Under the pieces are notes generated by a model. It saw only the letters and a program-made list of their open reading frames with translations. It did not search any database and was not told the DNA's origin. Source: a virus. Taken from it: a stretch of DNA of 64,000 nucleotides. Below are positions 8,113 to 61,285 of this stretch, piece by piece. Both the position numbers and the translations under genes were made by a program. The stretch is taken from positions 34,029 to 98,028 of IMG/VR virus record IMGVR_UViG_3300034073_002131; one strand, 5' to 3'. The first letter of the stretch is position 1; every line of letters starts with the position of its first letter.

Positions 8113-9309
8113 TCAAGTTGTTGTAGCTTTACCAACATGTAGGCCTGCTAGTCTAGACCCCCCGACACCAGGTACATAAACAGTCCAGAAAACAAAAATA
8201 TCTGGATAATCGGCATCATTAGTTAGAGTAGGCGCACTACTAGACCCTACCCATAACATAGGACTAGGATAAGTAATTGCTGTTGTGTTATACACATAAA
8301 CTACTGCAAATTCAGTTTCGTACGCACCACCAGATAAACCATTTGTAAGAGTTATACTACCACCACTACCATTTATTCTAAGATGTGCTCCGCTGTTTCC
8401 ATTGATTTGATGTGTGGAAGCACCGGAATAAGCATTCATTTGATTATATATGTTACCGTAAAAACTAACTGCATTTAGGTAAGGTGGTATAACTGGATAG
8501 TTACTGTAGTTGCCTTCATGAACTACAATATTGCCACCTACTTTAAGTACAGCACCTCCACTTTCTCCTGGATTATATACGTTTAAAGCACCATCACTAT
8601 CTAAGGCAATATGTCTAGTAGCAATGTTTTCATAATGCCAAGTTAGTGTAGGCTTGGCTCCACTGGCCCTAATTTCAGCAGGAAATGAGTGTCCTGACAT
8701 TCCACTAGTATTTCCACCATAGCTTGATGCATTAACTCTTACACCTAAAGTAACGTTAGTAGCAGTACCACCGCTTAGTGGAAGTGTATAGCTTGAATAG
8801 TTGCCGGCGTGAAGTACAGTATTACCACCAATAGTAATATTAAAGCCACTAGATACGCTTAAGTTATCGTCTATAGTAACTGCACCATTAAAATAACTAA
8901 TACCATTATTATAAAAGTCAAAGTTAGTATTATTAGCAGTGCCAATACCTAGCTGATTAACATGTGTAGTTCCCGCGACACGTAATTTATTGCCATTATC
9001 CGTACCAGTACCAACCAGTACATTACCACTATACTGTGCAAATTTAACTAGGCCGGTATCTAGGACTTCTATGCTGGGAATTCCACTTACGTCATTTACA
9101 CTATAAATAGTTCCGGTTAAACTATTAGTTACACTAAATAGCTGGCCAGCACTACCCTCTAGGCTAATAGTACCATTAGTAGTAGGATATACGCGTAGGG
9201 TAATTGTTTGTGGGCCTAGTGTGCTGCTTGCTCCAACAAACTCAATTTTAGGGTCGGCACTTTGCCCTATATTAGGAGTAATTAAAATATTTTTATCAGA
9301 CAAGGCCAT
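8113..9309 (-). CDS. Tail fibre-like protein
   Basis: Beta-rich; shares LHAGNY..Y.LPLSGG motif with the long fibre. Confidence 0.7.
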   Translation of the reverse strand: MALSDKNILITPNIGQSADPKIEFVGASSTLGPQTITLRVYPTTNGTISLEGSAGQLFSVTNSLTGTIYSVNDVSGIPSIEVLDTGLVKFAQYSGNVLVGTGTDNGNKLRVAGTTHVNQLGIGTANNTNFDFYNNGISYFNGAVTIDDNLSVSSGFNITIGGNTVLHAGNYSSYTLPLSGGTATNVTLGVRVNASSYGGNTSGMSGHSFPAEIRASGAKPTLTWHYENIATRHIALDSDGALNVYNPGESGGAVLKVGGNIVVHEGNYSNYPVIPPYLNAVSFYGNIYNQMNAYSGASTHQINGNSGAHLRINGSGGSITLTNGLSGGAYETEFAVVYVYNTTAITYPSPMLWVGSSSAPTLTNDADYPDIFVFWTVYVPGVGGSRLAGLHVGKATTT

Positions 9310-33894: not shown

Positions 33895-34308
33895 CTAGGA
33901 TTTGCTCGTAGAAAAGTTTCCCAAGTCTGTGACCTGTTCACTAACAAAACTATCAAAGTTTTGAGAATTTTTCATTAGGTATAGTGCGTTTTCTTCGCTA
34001 TACTCTAGTTCAGTTTCAGGATCTTGGCCACTAATATCAACTGGGGCTAGTTGCTCTAGATAGGTCAGCTTTAAGCCTTTCCAGCCTTTAATACTAGCTT
34101 TTACATAAAGCTCTAAGAATAGTTCGTCATTTAGCTCTTCGATAGGTTGACGATTTTTAAAACTAGTTTTAGTAGCTTTTTTTCTAATTGTTTGCAGTGT
34201 CTCACGACTTAAGAATGCTAGATCAATTTTAAAATCTGGCATTCCAGGGTATTCGACTTCAATTGCTTTGGATGGGACTAGTAGAGATTTAAGAGAAATG
34301 TTTGACAT
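33895..34308 (-). CDS. Tail assembly chaperone (G)
   Basis: Between major tail and TMP; IKGWKGL motif. Confidence 0.8.
   Translation of the reverse strand: MSNISLKSLLVPSKAIEVEYPGMPDFKIDLAFLSRETLQTIRKKATKTSFKNRQPIEELNDELFLELYVKASIKGWKGLKLTYLEQLAPVDISGQDPETELEYSEENALYLMKNSQNFDSFVSEQVTDLGNFSTSKS
33916..33922 (-). other. -1 programmed ribosomal frameshift site G GGA AAC
   Basis: X XXY YYZ in correct phase; -1 frame open into ATG at 33847. Confidence 0.85.
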
Positions 34309-38334: not shown

Positions 38335-40254
38335 TTAGGCTACGTAACGTAGAGCACTTACGCCCTGACCGTTGTTTGTAGTAATTTGAGTCATACCAGT
38401 ACGTAGGCTGGCGACCATGACACGACGTTGTGTTTCAACTAGGTCGTCGGTGTCAACGCGTAGACCACGCTGGTTACCAACTACGAAGTTCATAGGAGCA
38501 AATGCGATTGCACCAACAACACCGGCAGCCTTGTCTTCGAACTCGCCACTTACTAGAACAGGTGAATTACCAACTGAACCAATTTGGCCAGTTAGGATAG
38601 TGGCTTGATTGCCAACTTTATCAACTGTTAGGAAGTTGTCATCGTCTAGTAGGTCAAAATAACCGTCTGTGCTTACAATGTAAATTAGTTCAGCAGGATC
38701 AAGACCCCAGACACCTAGATCACGACGCATTGCACGTAGTGCTGCAACTGTTAGTTTAGCGTTATCGCTAATGTCTAGGTTAACTGCGCTGCTTGCGTCG
38801 TATGTGGCTAGACCTTTAACGGGGTCTGCACCAGCACCGGCACCACGTAGCATTGCGCGATCAACAGCGCGAGCAACACGGCGAACCATTGCATCACGGA
38901 TAACAGGCATAATTGCTAGTAGAGCATCTTCTTCTTCTTCAAAAGCTACATACTCATTGGTAGCAACTTTGTAGGCGTTAAGAGTGATCTCTTTAAGAGT
39001 GTGAGTAGCGTTACCACCAGCACTGTTAGCAGTACCAAACTGAGCATTCTGAACCCAAGTTGCAACACCGGCTTCTGGGTTAACAGGAATAGTCATTACA
39101 TTGGTTTGCATTGCAATACCACGAATGGTAGGAGCAACTACTAGGCGACGGCGAACTTCAGCTTCCATTGCTAGGCTAACTTCTAGTTCCCAAGTTGCGC
39201 TAGGAACGTGTGCACCGTACTTTTGTACAAGATCACGACCTAGGCGTGTGCTGTCAATACTCTTGCCAGTCATTTTTGCTAGGAGAACAGCTTTTTCTTT
39301 GTCCTCATAGCTCATATCACCAGACTTGCCATCAACGAATTGCATTTTGCTTTTCTGAATGGCTTCTAGCTCTTGTGCTTTTTCTTTTAGAGCAGCTTCT
39401 AGGCCACTGATAACACTCTTGGTGCTTTCTGCTTGCTCTTGGAAACGCTTCTCTACTTCGGCTAGTAGCTTTTCTGCACCAGTTTCGGTAGGAGTTACTG
39501 CAGCAACAGCTGCTTTAATACGTGCTTGTAGCTCAGCTTCTGCTGCTTCTTTAGCAGCTTTTTCAGCTTCGGCACGAGCCTGTTCTTCTTTAATAGCTTT
39601 GGCAGCTTGCTGTGCAGCATCTTGAGCTGTTTGGGCTAGTAATTGTTTTAATTCTTCTGGAGTCATATCCAATTCCTCTTTGGTTGTGCTATTTGCTTGC
39701 CTAGTAGTGTCTAGCCCTTTAGCTGACTCGCTTGGGGGTGCAAATTGCGCTATAAATTCACGATACTCCTGTGTGGAGTTAAATGATTTTGAAAGGTTAA
39801 AAAGTGTGTTTTGATTAGCTGGTACCGAAACTACTGAAATTTCATGTAATTCTAAGTCTTTGACTAGGAAAACTTCTGCGGCACTATTATATTCCGCATC
39901 TTTAATTCTAAATCCAACTGAAAATGCTGTTAAAACTTCGTCTTTAATAAGCTGGTATACCTTTTCAGCAGCTTTTGAGATCCTAGCTTTAATCCACAAT
40001 CCTTTTGCATCCACTTTGTGTTCGGTCATGCGGCCAACTGGCTGTGTATGATCGTGAAATGCTAGGATAACAGGATTTTTTATGTAGTTCTCTAAGCCTT
40101 TTTCCCAAACTGAGGTAGGGATTACATCACCGTGTCTGTCAACATCCACAGTTGATGCATATCCACTAATCTCAATTACGTCTGGTTCTGCTGGTAGCGG
40201 CTCAGCTTTAGTAAAGACACTGTTAAAGTACAGAATCTTATTTTTGTCTACCAT
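38335..40254 (-). CDS. HK97-type prohead protease fused to major capsid protein
   Basis: N-terminal GYAST..DR.GD...H...FSVGF...EISVVSVPAN; coiled delta domain; HK97-fold capsid C-terminus. Confidence 0.92.
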   Translation of the reverse strand: MVDKNKILYFNSVFTKAEPLPAEPDVIEISGYASTVDVDRHGDVIPTSVWEKGLENYIKNPVILAFHDHTQPVGRMTEHKVDAKGLWIKARISKAAEKVYQLIKDEVLTAFSVGFRIKDAEYNSAAEVFLVKDLELHEISVVSVPANQNTLFNLSKSFNSTQEYREFIAQFAPPSESAKGLDTTRQANSTTKEELDMTPEELKQLLAQTAQDAAQQAAKAIKEEQARAEAEKAAKEAAEAELQARIKAAVAAVTPTETGAEKLLAEVEKRFQEQAESTKSVISGLEAALKEKAQELEAIQKSKMQFVDGKSGDMSYEDKEKAVLLAKMTGKSIDSTRLGRDLVQKYGAHVPSATWELEVSLAMEAEVRRRLVVAPTIRGIAMQTNVMTIPVNPEAGVATWVQNAQFGTANSAGGNATHTLKEITLNAYKVATNEYVAFEEEEDALLAIMPVIRDAMVRRVARAVDRAMLRGAGAGADPVKGLATYDASSAVNLDISDNAKLTVAALRAMRRDLGVWGLDPAELIYIVSTDGYFDLLDDDNFLTVDKVGNQATILTGQIGSVGNSPVLVSGEFEDKAAGVVGAIAFAPMNFVVGNQRGLRVDTDDLVETQRRVMVASLRTGMTQITTNNGQGVSALRYVA

Positions 40255-45912: not shown

Positions 45913-46263
45913 ATGTTGTTTATGAACTCAAACCCGCTCATGAAACCCTGGTACGATGCCTGCCAAATTTGGCCGGAATTGGAACTCTACAATCCGCCGA
46001 CCTTCAAAATCTCGGAACGGCTTACCCGTACCGCTGGCTTGTGTATTGTGGAGACTGGCGAGATTACCTTGTCCGGACCATACTTGCGCGAATACCGCAA
46101 TTATATGATGGGACAAATTCTCACCCATGAGACTGCGCATTATATCGACTACTGTTTAAACGGTTGGCACAAATATAAGCGTCATCATGGCAAGCAATGG
46201 CAGGAAATCATGTATAATCTAGGCTACAAACCCGAACCCTTTCACACAATGGAATTGAGATAA
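45913..46263 (+). CDS. SprT-like zinc metalloprotease
   Basis: RLTRTAG...I.LS...HETAH...HGKQW. Confidence 0.8.
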   Translation: MLFMNSNPLMKPWYDACQIWPELELYNPPTFKISERLTRTAGLCIVETGEITLSGPYLREYRNYMMGQILTHETAHYIDYCLNGWHKYKRHHGKQWQEIMYNLGYKPEPFHTMELR

Positions 46264-46736
46264 TGGCAATCAAGCGAATCAGAATTTACGATATGGATGG
46301 CACAATTGTATGCTCCTTGCATCGTTACCGGACCATTATTGATGAGCGTGGCGAGCGTATCGACCTAGAATATTGGCGCGAGAATGAATACCGCGCGCTT
46401 GACGATTCCCTGCTACCGCTAGCAGAACAATATCGCGCAGACCTTGCCGATCCTGAATGCTATACCATCATTGCCACTGCGCGCGTACTAGGTGAACCAG
46501 ATATGCAATTTATTAGGGAGACACTAGGCGAACCCGATTATATCGTTTCCCGTAAATCGGGCGATACGCAATCGGGTCGAACTCTGAAAATCGGTGGGCT
46601 AGCAAAGTTTTTTAATCTTGTCAACTTCAAAACCGATGACGTTATCTTTTATGAAGATAACGCGGAATATCTGAAAGCCGTTTGTGACCGGTTTGATATC
46701 CGTGGAGTTTACATTCCAAGCCGTCAAGGGCACTAG
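46263..46736 (+). CDS. HAD-superfamily phosphatase
   Basis: DMDGT motif I, TAR motif II, YEDN motif IV. Confidence 0.8.
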   Translation: MAIKRIRIYDMDGTIVCSLHRYRTIIDERGERIDLEYWRENEYRALDDSLLPLAEQYRADLADPECYTIIATARVLGEPDMQFIRETLGEPDYIVSRKSGDTQSGRTLKIGGLAKFFNLVNFKTDDVIFYEDNAEYLKAVCDRFDIRGVYIPSRQGH

Positions 46737-49845: not shown

Positions 49846-50154
49846 ATGACTGACAAAGTAATGAACTATACCCCTGAACAGGTTCAGGAACTGGTCCAGA
49901 AGTATCAGCAAGGCGTTAGCGTTGAGCAACTGGCCGAGCAAGTAGGTAAATCCGTGCGTTCGGTGGTTGCTAAGCTGAGCCGCGAGGGTGTGTATGTGGC
50001 TAAGACTCGGAACACACAGGCGGCCCGAGTCACCAAAGCTGAGCTGGTAGAGCGCATCGCCCGAGTATGCGATCGTAATAGTGAACAGTTTGAAAGCCTA
50101 GAAAAAGCAAATCAGGATGTTTTGACCCGCCTGGTCGAAGTGCTCAAAGCCTGA
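49846..50154 (+). CDS. T5 A2-like protein, copy 3
   Basis: NYTPEQ...GKSVRSVVAKLSREGVY; GGAG SD; two tandem promoters upstream. Confidence 0.75.
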   Translation: MTDKVMNYTPEQVQELVQKYQQGVSVEQLAEQVGKSVRSVVAKLSREGVYVAKTRNTQAARVTKAELVERIARVCDRNSEQFESLEKANQDVLTRLVEVLKA

Positions 50155-50179
50155 TCCCCCGGGGCTGCAAAAATTTACT

Positions 50180-50208
50180 CTTGCGGCCTCCACCTAAACA
50201 GTGTATAA
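50180..50208 (+). promoter_or_regulatory. sigma70 promoter of ncRNA locus
   Basis: TTGCGG-17-TATAAT. Confidence 0.75.
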
Positions 50209-50602
50209 TATTATTTATAGTTTGGGAAGGGCGATATAGATCGCACAAACAGAGTCCACTTAGCCAACTACAAGTGTACATACCTAAGTATTGGACTCAA
50301 GTTTGATTCCCAAACTATCTACTATACTTTATTACTAGGGCGACAGCGGTCACAGCGATATACTACTGCTATGTGATACGTCTTAATTGTGGAGAACTAC
50401 ATGACCGAGCCACAGCCCCACTCTCAGAAAGGCAGCAGTTAGTTACTGCTAGCAGATGGTAATATTGGTCTGTAGTTTTATAATGTCTGGCTCTGCTGGC
50501 GCTTGAGGCTAGTATGGGGTATCAGTAAATACTCCAGAACACAATATAGCGAGCAACCAGACCCTAAACTAGAGCAATCCCAACCATCGTTGCTGCTTTT
50601 CC

Positions 50603-50695
50603 CCTATTCCTCTGATGAGCTCACCGAGAGCGAAACCCAAACCCGAAAACTGGTGCCCCATGCCCAGCAGACTACGGTTTAGGGTCAGGAATTGG
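50603..50695 (+). ncRNA. Hammerhead ribozyme (type I topology), predicted cleavage after C50686
   Basis: Stem I AUUCCU/AGGAAU; CUGAUGA; stem II GCUC/GAGC; GAAA; stem III CCC-AAACC/GGUUU-A-GGG; GUC triplet. Confidence 0.88.
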
Positions 50696-50765
50696 TCCTT
50701 TCACTTCCCGGTCTGCCAGGACGCTAAACTGTGCAGGGACGGCACAACCCTAAAAGTGCCTAGTC

Positions 50766-50797
50766 AAGCCCACCAGTGCAAACTGGTGGGCTTTTTT
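50766..50797 (+). terminator. Intrinsic terminator
   Basis: AAGCCCACCAGT-GCAA-ACTGGTGGGCTTTTTT. Confidence 0.9.
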
Positions 50798-50817
50798 ATT
50801 TGAGGTTAGGCGCCCCT

Positions 50818-50847
50818 ATTATACAGTGCTAAAGCAATATGTGTCAA
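50818..50847 (-). promoter_or_regulatory. Leftward sigma70 promoter facing ncRNA 3' end
   Basis: TTGACA-18-TATAAT then GGGGCGCC. Confidence 0.6.
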
Positions 50848-50972
50848 GACGAAATTTGTAGGTGTTATGACCCTAAACTGTGTTAGTCTTTAATATGGGC
50901 TAGCCCGTATTAAAGTTTTCTTTAATTGACCCTAAGCCGTATGAAGTCTCCACAGGCCACACCCACCAAAAC

Positions 50973-51009
50973 AAAACCCCCAAGACCTATGCGGTTTTGG
51001 GGGTTTTTT
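50973..51009. terminator. Terminator for leftward early operon
   Basis: AAAACCCCCAAGACC...GGTTTTGGGGGTTTT. Confidence 0.7.
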
Positions 51010-51022
51010 AACTTGCAACGAC

Positions 51023-51334
51023 TTAGGGTCGGTTATTCTTGGATAATTCGCGTTCGATGACCTCTAAGACACCTTTATTGACCTTTTCTAGACTTTCAAG
51101 CAGTTCAAGGTTCATGTTGAGCAGCAAGGCAATCCGTTCGATATATTCCGACTTTTTAACCGGGACCTCACCACGCTTGTTTAGGTACTGTTTTTTCTGG
51201 TACACCTCGAGCGAGCTGAGCTTGGCAATTATGCTCCTGGTTGGGACCTGGAGCTCTTGAGCCAGCTCCTCCACGGGGACCCCAGCCCTATATTGTTGTA
51301 CTAGACGGTCAGTGATTTCTTTAGTATATTTCAT
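51023..51334 (-). CDS. T5 A2-like protein, copy 4 (divergent)
   Basis: MKYTKE...Y..G..VE.LA....TRSIIAKLSSLEVYQKK...ESLEK.NK. Confidence 0.7.
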   Translation of the reverse strand: MKYTKEITDRLVQQYRAGVPVEELAQELQVPTRSIIAKLSSLEVYQKKQYLNKRGEVPVKKSEYIERIALLLNMNLELLESLEKVNKGVLEVIERELSKNNRP

Positions 51335-51338
51335 GTTG

Positions 51339-52121
51339 TTAGTCGTCCCAGGGCATATCTGCAACTTTAACGTGTTTTGGACCCTCAACCAGAGCACTTG
51401 CAAAAATCTCATCTGGTACTAAGGGTTGGGGCATCCTGTCCCAGGTCCACGGGTCTAGGATTAGGTAGGGTGTTCGAAGCTGTGGATGGCAAACCCAAAT
51501 TTGCGTCAACATGGTAAGTACAAGTTTAGGCACACTACGCCAAGGCTCCGCTAGCCCAGTAAGTTGCCAAGTTGTAAGTGCACTTTTATACCTACCCTGT
51601 TTTTGGCCAGTTTTGTATAACAACCCTTGCTGCCTGAGCTCAACTAACTCCTGGGACCCTAAATCGCACAGGTGTGGGTTCTGGCGAGCCCACAGTAGGC
51701 ACTCATATAAATCTTTGGAGATCACACGGTCTAGACCGATTAGCGGCCAGCTCTGGTATGGAACTCCCCGATCTCGTTTTTGTGCTAGCATGATAGTAGG
51801 AGCTAGTGAGCTCCAATTTACCGAACCAGGATCACTTTGACGCCGGACTAGGTGGCTGCGATTTACTCGATTTACTAGCCTCCACAAGCCCAAGTCCCAA
51901 TCGCTGCAAATATTGATACGGAGGGTTTTAGGAATGTCTACCACACCATTAGGATCTAAGATAAGATTCCAGCGGGTATAGTGTGCCACGATTTGAGGCC
52001 ACAGCCAATCTTCTTTTAGCTGTAGCTGTTGTTCCGCAACCCAAACCTCCAACACCTTAGGGTCAGTTGTATTAGCGATTTCATGTAGTGGGATTGCTTC
52101 CAGCTTATTTAGTTTTTGCAT
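51339..52121 (-). CDS. Conserved phage hypothetical protein
   Basis: Long ORF; start at MQKLNK chosen because the upstream part is a hairpin leader. Confidence 0.65.
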   Translation of the reverse strand: MQKLNKLEAIPLHEIANTTDPKVLEVWVAEQQLQLKEDWLWPQIVAHYTRWNLILDPNGVVDIPKTLRINICSDWDLGLWRLVNRVNRSHLVRRQSDPGSVNWSSLAPTIMLAQKRDRGVPYQSWPLIGLDRVISKDLYECLLWARQNPHLCDLGSQELVELRQQGLLYKTGQKQGRYKSALTTWQLTGLAEPWRSVPKLVLTMLTQIWVCHPQLRTPYLILDPWTWDRMPQPLVPDEIFASALVEGPKHVKVADMPWDD

Positions 52122-61215: not shown

Positions 61216-61285
61216 AATATTTTAGTCTTGACCCTAAGGCTCAATAACTGTATAATATTTATTCAATAATCAAACTGAGACAATC

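Follow-up and report, generated by a model that had tools for sequence, protein, structure and literature searches.

Hammerhead ribozymes are known in their thousands from bacteria and phages, and to our knowledge hardly any of them has been assigned a biological role. Those in the intergenic regions of phages and prophages have been proposed to process long phage transcripts (Perreault et al. 2011, PMC3088659), and the hepatitis delta virus-like theta ribozymes, which lie beside phage tRNAs, cleave at the 5' edge of the ribozyme itself, thereby trimming the 3' trailer of the tRNA (Kienbeck et al. 2024, PMC10879173). GOLLD and ROOL are large ornate phage-associated non-coding RNAs (ncRNAs) (Kretsch et al. 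2025, PMC12286853). Here we describe a hammerhead ribozyme and its surrounding RNA in 64,000 nucleotides of phage DNA (IMG/VR virus record IMGVR_UViG_3300034073_002131, positions 34,029 to 98,028; this whole stretch is called the window and is numbered from its first letter). The ribozyme shares the core, three-way junction, open stem I and phage intergenic setting of the described phage type I hammerheads (clan CL00010: RF00163, RF00008, RF02275-7), whereas it goes undetected at the Rfam gathering threshold, carries a long structured stem III extension, belongs to a family in which most members have a stem I of 3 bp and, rather than flanking protein genes, is a fixed internal module of a conserved ncRNA. 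The ribozyme class and its general setting are already known; what differs is above all this fixed place inside a conserved ncRNA.

A complete type I hammerhead can be read directly from the plus strand at 50606-50692 (Table 1), and each of the elements listed in an earlier note on this DNA is found where that note put it. Stems II and III are closed by loops and both RNA ends leave through stem I, as in the type I topology. The G10.1-C11.1 pair is formed by G50619-C50631, and stem III joins the strands ACCCAAACC (50635-43) and GGUUU-A-GGGU (50676-85) beneath a 32-nt insert (50644-50675) with a CUGG/CCAG hairpin of its own. The cleavage triplet is GUC (G50684-U50685-C50686), in keeping with the hammerhead consensus, in which position 17, 3' of U16.1, is A, C or U and never G. 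A strict scan, requiring the full core, G10.1-C11.1, A15.1-U16.1, a position 17 other than G, at least 5 bp in stem I and at least 4 bp in stems II and III, returned this single site on both strands of the window, and 0 sites in 200 first-order Markov random 64-kb sequences with matched dinucleotide statistics. All three stems are present in the minimum free energy (MFE) fold of the full predicted transcript (50216-50800), with a pairing probability of 0.87 for stem III.

Homologues were gathered in several ways. A search of IMG/VR with the 121-aa helix-turn-helix (HTH) protein encoded just upstream of the ncRNA gave 33 related loci (labels such as L014, L042 and L111 denote related loci), and a simple scan placed a hammerhead motif downstream of the HTH gene in 28 of them. 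A degenerate hammerhead pattern matched 53 stretches, among which there are 40 distinct ribozyme sequences; their contigs reach ~104 kb. The pattern of a second conserved segment, module X (described below), matched 60 IMG/VR stretches and one metagenome-assembled genome contig, and of the 26 new loci that this pattern supplied, 20 contain additional hammerheads of greater divergence, detected with a covariance model. The homologues come from uncultured ~100-kb phages, more than 50 related phage sequences keep the ribozyme, and there is one copy per phage genome or locus, with strand and non-coding unit constant; the covariance model likewise finds one in the genome of this phage.

Comparison of the homologues revealed the signature of a maintained RNA structure. 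From a plain MAFFT alignment of 16 homologues, RNAalifold recovered stems I, II and III unguided; 97.6% of the cells in this alignment pair, six pairs carry double changes, and none of 500 shuffles attains these figures. A model-fitted alignment of 70 matches, 55 of them distinct, is biased toward the model's own structure; 96.2% of its cells pair (at most 43% in slid controls), and compensatory changes occur in 11 of 16 pairs, namely two in stem I, four of the five in stem II and five of the eight in stem III, with G10.1-C11.1 and A15.1-U16.1 invariant. Stem I covaries among relatives as CCU/AGG, CUU/AAG and CCA/UGG, and in an AT-rich clade the sequence of stem III is different and its pairing the same. 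C3, U4, G5, A6, G8 and A9 are invariant in all 54 aligned distinct homologues, in which position 7 is U (46) or C (8); GAAA (G12 A13 A14 A15.1) is invariant in 55 of 55; and position 17 is C in 50 homologues, A in 4 and G in none. Variation is thus confined to places at which the hammerhead consensus tolerates it.

The earlier note had named a core not conserved in relatives as part of the grounds for abandoning the assignment; the core is essentially invariant across the 55 distinct homologues, and its reading of a hammerhead with a predicted cut after C50686 gains both comparative and thermodynamic support from the covarying stems and the fold. We are highly confident that this is a true hammerhead ribozyme. 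It is scarcely conceivable that the feature is not an RNA one at all, being instead a chance motif or the trace of conservation at the level of DNA (a GACCCTAA site) or of a small open reading frame (ORF). The stem III 3' strand with the cut site is indeed the reverse complement of the GACCCTAA motif, and the ATG within CUGAUGA opens a 62-codon frame; yet hammerheads of the AT-rich clade lack the GACCCTAA motif and retain the core, the frames have no ribosome-binding site and are broken by indels in relatives, and the strict scan found nothing in random sequence. Compensatory changes in three stems, with a C-G/U-G alternation in stem III that is compatible with plus-strand RNA only, largely refute this explanation already.

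Three related loci (L102:12590-12767, L098:665-823 and L111:8510-8667) keep the core and have an insertion of ~90 nt in stem II, with a GACCCUAAAC hairpin inside it; A9 and G10.1 are separated by one additional U, and A or C occupies position 7. In L111 a 37-codon hydrophobic ORF with a ribosome-binding site lies inside the ncRNA unit (~8390-8503).

At the gathering score, Rfam cmscan reported two tRNAs and no hammerhead in the window, and tRNAs only in 17 related loci. In E-value mode the best hammerhead match was a local one to RF02275 (Hammerhead_HH9), which scored 17.3 bits (E=0.33) where the gathering threshold is 52, with an alignment that skips a 43-nt insertion in stem III. The Infernal/Rfam check proposed in the earlier note thus did match a hammerhead model, far below gathering. 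The silence of Rfam is probably due to the stem III insert. The gathering threshold is a criterion of detection and not a biochemical one; on the Rfam criterion alone the site fails, and the case therefore rests on the comparative evidence. For the window locus and a canonical relative (one with the full layout described below), E-value mode gave only a weak hammerhead match and sequences resembling terminators, and none of the large-RNA families.

The ribozyme lies in an 870-bp gene-free gap between a plus-strand block ending at 50154 and a minus-strand block ending at 51023, bordered by convergent genes for paralogous small HTH proteins (PHROG 323 and GcrA-like). A promoter, P1, is predicted there, embedded in a hairpin, with a start at ~50216. 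It is near-identical in the eight closest relatives; its -35 box agrees with the consensus at only 3 of 6 positions, and the promoter scan therefore leaves it unlisted. The predicted 585-nt RNA has an MFE of -194.8 kcal/mol, against -160.9 +/- 7.0 kcal/mol for shuffles (z = -4.85), and no credible ORF was found in the ncRNA unit. With a conserved promoter and terminator, this bears out the earlier description of a stand-alone non-coding transcript that would be split into RNAs of ~470 and ~110 nt, the sizes now predicted being ~471 and ~114 nt.

Table 1. Coordinates of the hammerhead, its predicted transcript and associated features (window numbering; related loci by label)
Feature	Position	Strand	Description or basis
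Predicted sigma-70 promoter P1	50181..50209	+	TTGCGG 50181-86, 17-nt spacer, TATAAT 50204-09
Predicted ~585-nt non-coding transcript with ribozyme	50216..50800	+	ORF check, fold energy, covarying hairpins in close relatives
Module X	50338..50419	+	GGGCGACAGCGG, variable hairpin, CGUCUUAAUUGUGG, variable loop, CCGAGCCACAGCCC; highly conserved in relatives
GACCCUAAAC segment	50557..50573	+	Complementary to stem III 3' strand and cleavage site (50676-50686)
Stem I 5' strand, AUUCCU	50606..50611	+	Pairs with 50687-50692, 6 bp; A50606-U50611 with A50687-U50692
Core C3-A9, CUGAUGA	50612..50618	+	Sequence reading
Stem II GCUC/GAGC, loop ACCGA	50619..50631	+	G50619-C50622 with G50628-C50631
GAAA, core G12 A13 A14 and A15.1	50632..50635	+	Sequence reading
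Stem III	50635..50685	+	9 bp, 50635-43 with 50676-85, A50681 bulged
C17, predicted scissile phosphodiester C50686/A50687	50686	+	Hammerhead consensus
Stem I 3' strand, AGGAAU	50687..50692	+	First six bases of predicted 3' product
~72-nt 3' tail particular to this phage	50695..50766	+	In closest relatives the terminator follows directly after stem I
Intrinsic terminator	50766..50799	+	12-bp terminator at 50766-50797, stem then U tract; conserved with compensatory changes in relatives
tRNA-Glu inserts between module Y and hammerhead	L014:2449-2523, L016:4734-4808, L017:5206-5280, L020:4833-4907, L010:4725-4799, L026:4854-4928		

The hammerhead turned out to be the part that stays constant in a modular ncRNA, about 0.6-1 kb long and so far uncatalogued. 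In most relatives a second promoter fires straight into module X, followed by module Y, the hammerhead, a domain of ~600 nt and a terminator. Module X in relatives spans ~80 nt and consists of the near-invariant strands GGGYGACAGCGG, CGUCUUAAUUGUGG and CCGAGCCACAGCCC with two variable hairpins or loops between them; further copies lie at L016:4566-4646, L018:4531-4592 and elsewhere. It stands at the extreme 5' end of the promoter-driven transcript in most relatives, in 29 of 40 variants the hammerhead is preceded, at a distance of 118-625 nt, by an exact 14-mer of it, and it is found at raised depth in one freshwater metatranscriptome. A comparison of module X with Rfam gave zero family matches; its form suggests a binding motif for a ligand or protein, or else a pseudoknot. 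Module Y (GGUGUUAUGAG...GAUAACAACUUAAU and a hairpin) lies between X and the hammerhead. The conserved ~600-nt domain follows the cut site in most relatives and begins AGGRYGAAAACC. For 13 canonical RNAs, RNAalifold predicted 206 pairs, 75 of them with compensatory changes (a raw count without a control), and a long-range helix of 16-20 bp joins a mid-RNA GACCCUAAAC to a distal GUUUAGGGUC, with covarying flanks.

In five relatives a tRNA-Glu(UUC) with an encoded CCA ends 5 nt before CUGAUGA, and in three others a tRNA-Glu(UUC) lies ~100 nt upstream of the core. The absence of an adjacent tRNA, remarked on in the earlier note, thus holds for this phage, which has none within 10 kb of the ribozyme, and does not extend to several relatives with an upstream tRNA-Glu. 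These relatives invite comparison with the theta ribozymes, which are likewise small, encoded by tailed phages and directly downstream of a tRNA (here in relatives L014, L016, L017 and L020/L022 only). The hammerhead differs in cutting at its own 3' edge, ~95 nt past the CCA, so that it would stay attached to the tRNA and free the RNA downstream, and the tRNA is an optional insert in this family. Trimming of a tRNA trailer in the manner of theta accordingly does not describe the window, with its lack of a nearby tRNA, or the relatives, with their distant cut.

The lineage of the window has a reduced form of this RNA; the window itself keeps X and the ribozyme, and has only the 72-nt tail and the terminator where most relatives have the 3' domain. 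Two clean indels separate this phage from its closest relatives, in which a neighbouring protein is 94-98% identical. One, of 104 nt (50320-50423), carries module X, absent from those relatives through this indel, together with a remnant -10 box; the other (50695-50766) is the tail, whose CGCUAAACUGUGCAGGG hairpin is similar to the one that canonical relatives have mid-RNA. The two indels fit modular recombination inside the RNA gene.

This lineage also differs from its relatives in details of the ribozyme. Stem I has 6 bp here and just 3 bp in most relatives, the stem III extension 32 nt here and ~50-60 nt in relatives, and loop II, a GNRA loop (GCAA, GAAA or GUAA) in most relatives, is ACCGA; most relatives also have conserved unpaired A residues beside the 3-bp stem I. 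A covarying tertiary contact between stem I and loop II, of the kind that gives hammerheads their fast cleavage at physiological Mg2+, was sought in this lineage and none was identified. These differences bear on the idea that the hammerhead here is a vestigial junction, its fold kept as architecture and its useful cleavage rate lost, as a remnant of ancestors that released a 3' domain. The ~600-nt 3' domain, which the cut would free in relatives, is gone from this lineage, and with a non-GNRA loop II and a shortened stem III extension tertiary stabilisation is perhaps weaker. However, two large indels and many substitutions elsewhere in the RNA have left every catalytic nucleotide intact, here as in the eight closest relatives, and mere structure would not require an invariant C3-A9, G12-A14 and a position 17 other than G. 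We therefore consider a vestigial junction decidedly unlikely.

Across the relatives X, Y, the tRNA and the 3' domain have each been gained or lost, and the ribozyme persists with an intact core. Because it persists through remodelling of all its surroundings, the cut itself seems to be the selected function. The earlier note had called the purpose of the ribozyme unexplained. It is less opaque than that, since as the constant joint of a larger conserved modular RNA the ribozyme can be argued to have a role in processing.

We lean towards the view that this is an active, constitutive, cis-cleaving type I hammerhead that serves as a built-in processing joint of a phage ncRNA precursor. The motif, its conservation, its covariation and its context are observed; from them we infer catalysis in vivo, the transcript ends and the roles of the products. 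Host RNA polymerase would start at P1 (~50216), and the upstream domains would fold as they emerge, including a helix that sequesters the GACCCUAAAC segment. Once the stem III 3' strand and AGGAAU have been transcribed, the hammerhead would fold and cut C50686/A50687 co-transcriptionally. The 5' product of ~471 nt would retain the folded ribozyme and end in a 2',3'-cyclic phosphate; the 3' product of ~114 nt would begin with a 5'-hydroxyl and consist of the tail and terminator hairpin. A 3' end of this kind, a compact ribozyme fold with a 2',3'-cyclic phosphate, should withstand 3' exonucleases and escape polyadenylation. In this phage the main effect would be a large RNA with a defined, capped 3' end, freed of its terminator. 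In most relatives the cut would part X, Y and the ribozyme, with or without tRNA-Glu, from the ~600-nt 3' domain.

As a type I hammerhead stays on the 5' product, the canonical downstream domain would gain an exact 5'-OH end, and the sequence of these RNAs, with a conserved domain starting right after the cut site, fits such 5'-end generation. Processing of an upstream tRNA would sever X-Y from the ribozyme anyway, which suggests that the constant functional neighbour of the ribozyme is the downstream RNA. An engineered hammerhead placed upstream of a guide RNA or another RNA sets the 5' end of that RNA. By analogy, the logic would be the same: in ribozyme-flanked RNAs a type I hammerhead removes the 5' part and leaves a few stem I bases and a 5'-OH. 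The known examples were designed, whereas this one is natural.

The ends left by the cut could in principle be rejoined, with a phage kinase/ligase or host RtcB circularising or re-sealing the 2',3'-cyclic phosphate and 5'-OH. A 157-aa ORF at 46263-46736 (+), ~4 kb upstream, matches PHROG 415 'polynucleotide kinase' (E = 8e-8), and an ORF at genome position 14877 has a sub-threshold match to Pfam RNA_ligase (25.2 bits against a cut-off of 27). The former, however, has no Pfam support, and the latter may be the phage DNA ligase; RtcB and an AAA_33 kinase domain were searched for in the phage and neither was found, and in relatives kinase and ligase genes show no linkage to the ncRNA locus. Moreover, the 5' end of the transcript is a triphosphate and not made by the ribozyme, so that one cut cannot give a circle. 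Cleavage followed by rejoining is on these grounds highly improbable.

The processing joint could alternatively be under control. In such a regulated switch, GACCCUAAAC(U) (50560-50570) would pair with GGUUUAGGGUC (50676-50686) and hide the stem III 3' strand and the cleavage site, and cleavage would then require that the 50469-50490 helix, a protein or another RNA keep the segment engaged elsewhere. The complementarity of 11 bp between GACCCUAAACU (50560-70) and the stem III 3' strand with C17 is real, and 11-17 bp of it are kept in close relatives. When 50550-50700 is folded in isolation, the MFE structure is this alternative (-40.3 against -33.2 kcal/mol, P about 1.0). Elsewhere in the family, too, copies of the motif occur near the ribozyme: L102, L098 and L111 have them within stem II, and canonical RNAs have them downstream. 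Folding predictions for the full transcript, and for each nascent prefix from the predicted start, however, pair 50557-50573 with 50469-50490 before the competing strand has been made, and the ribozyme fold prevails. Across the family, changes in stem III are not followed by the motif: nearby copies stay GACCCUAA beside stem III types as different as GACUCGUA, UACCCCCA and GACCCCAA. Its covarying partner in canonical RNAs is the distal GUUUAGGGUC and not the ribozyme. Anti-ribozyme pairing across the family is ruled out by this failure to covary with stem III; in the present lineage alone a switch is possible, conservation of the sequence lends it no support, and we regard it as unlikely.

Two further candidates in relatives were rejected. 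A distal GUUUAGGGUCAGG in the 3' domain, considered as a second cut site, shows no covariation with the stem III 5' strand (L045, L067), lacks the AGG in two loci (L043 and L086), and has the mid-RNA GACCCUAAAC as its pairing partner. A second hammerhead-like arrangement, CACGGAUA...CUGAAACGUG with AGGACGAAAC, does not fit the consensus.

Several points weigh against an active processing joint. The cut is predicted from the consensus, and metatranscriptome contigs cannot reveal RNA ends. Activity at physiological Mg2+ is likewise a prediction, given that no contact between stem I and loop II was identified. A local context of 151 nt favours the alternative helix 50560-70/50676-86 by 7 kcal/mol over the ribozyme. 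The Rfam hammerhead models score the site far below gathering, and the 3' product in this phage looks like little more than a terminator. As to expression, sequencing runs place the stretch in subsurface DNA metagenomes, and three freshwater or river metatranscriptomes contain small parts only, from relatives and spanning 50150-50552; their contigs do not cover the ribozyme and, being blind to RNA ends, are neutral on transcription and cleavage.

A broader joint reading would make the hammerhead the invariant processing core of a previously uncatalogued, ornate family of modular ncRNAs of about 0.6-1 kb, built from a promoter, X, Y, an optional tRNA-Glu, the hammerhead, a helix-closed 3' domain and a terminator. 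The family would be restricted to an uncultured freshwater T5-like clade and always lie between convergent paralogous HTH genes; obligatory self-cleavage would split the precursor early in infection into two separately acting RNAs; and the window would hold a naturally reduced version with only X and the ribozyme. Taken as a whole, we hold this reading to be evenly balanced between right and wrong. GOLLD and ROOL would be its nearest likeness, being likewise phage-borne, hundreds of nucleotides long, modular, without an assigned function and often beside or enclosing tRNA genes; GOLLD, like this family, is found in lake metagenomes. Searches with the GOLLD, ROOL and other Rfam large ncRNA models showed no similarity at gathering or at E up to 5-10, and a built-in self-cleaving ribozyme is not among the features that the available part of the published account reports for GOLLD or ROOL.

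The freshwater phage itself is uncultured. Its record is 98,028 bp long with terminal repeats, the window forming the final 64 kb, and its fused protease/major-capsid gene is 37-39% identical to those of Aeromonas phage AhSzw-1 and Vibrio phage pVp-1 (both Demerecviridae), an identity that marks it as a distant T5-like phage. Prohead protease and major capsid protein are encoded in a single 639-aa ORF at 38335-40254 (-); they are separate genes in the matching cultured Demerecviridae. The hammerhead covariance model had zero matches in pVp-1 and AhSzw-1, the two closest cultured Demerecviridae, and blastn of the window ncRNA and of one canonical relative against 50,697 cultured-phage records also returned zero matches. 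Among ten ORFs neighbouring the ribozyme, Pfam gave SprT-like, PQ-loop and GcrA/HTH-like matches, none of them linked to RNA.

Some observations on the locus stand apart. A perfect consensus promoter on the minus strand (50847-50818; TTGACA, 18-nt spacer, TATAAT), kept in relatives, is aimed at the ncRNA terminator and the ribozyme. The terminator of relatives is bidirectional, so that this leftward promoter would yield an RNA of only ~60 nt; in this phage the minus-strand U tract is weak, and antisense read-through across the hammerhead is possible. In canonical relatives the 3' product opens with AGGACG, to which CGUCUU in module X is complementary, and RNAalifold pairs the two (L042:6136-6141 with L042:6361-6366). 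Both strands are invariant, so there is no covariation, and only UCUU/AGGA would pair in the window; a contact between X and the cut site in canonical relatives is a lead from this predicted pairing. The 8-mer GACCCTAA and its reverse complement occur in 12 copies in the window, seven of them within 50560-52057 and often as inverted pairs (50560, 50679, 50869, 50928, 51023, 51655, 52057, 61230 and four more), at the same positions in relatives. One pair flanks a terminator at 50972-51008, and the copy at 61230 overlaps a -35 box. The covarying long-range helix of canonical relatives consists of two copies that lie within the RNA. Copies outside the RNA may be candidate sites for the flanking HTH proteins.

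For hammerhead surveys, the locus means that the Rfam models miss a well-supported family owing to an insertion in stem III. For the phages themselves, natural variants with and without the 3' domain, with and without X, with a tRNA insert or with a stem II expanded by ~90 nt make the purpose of a phage hammerhead testable.

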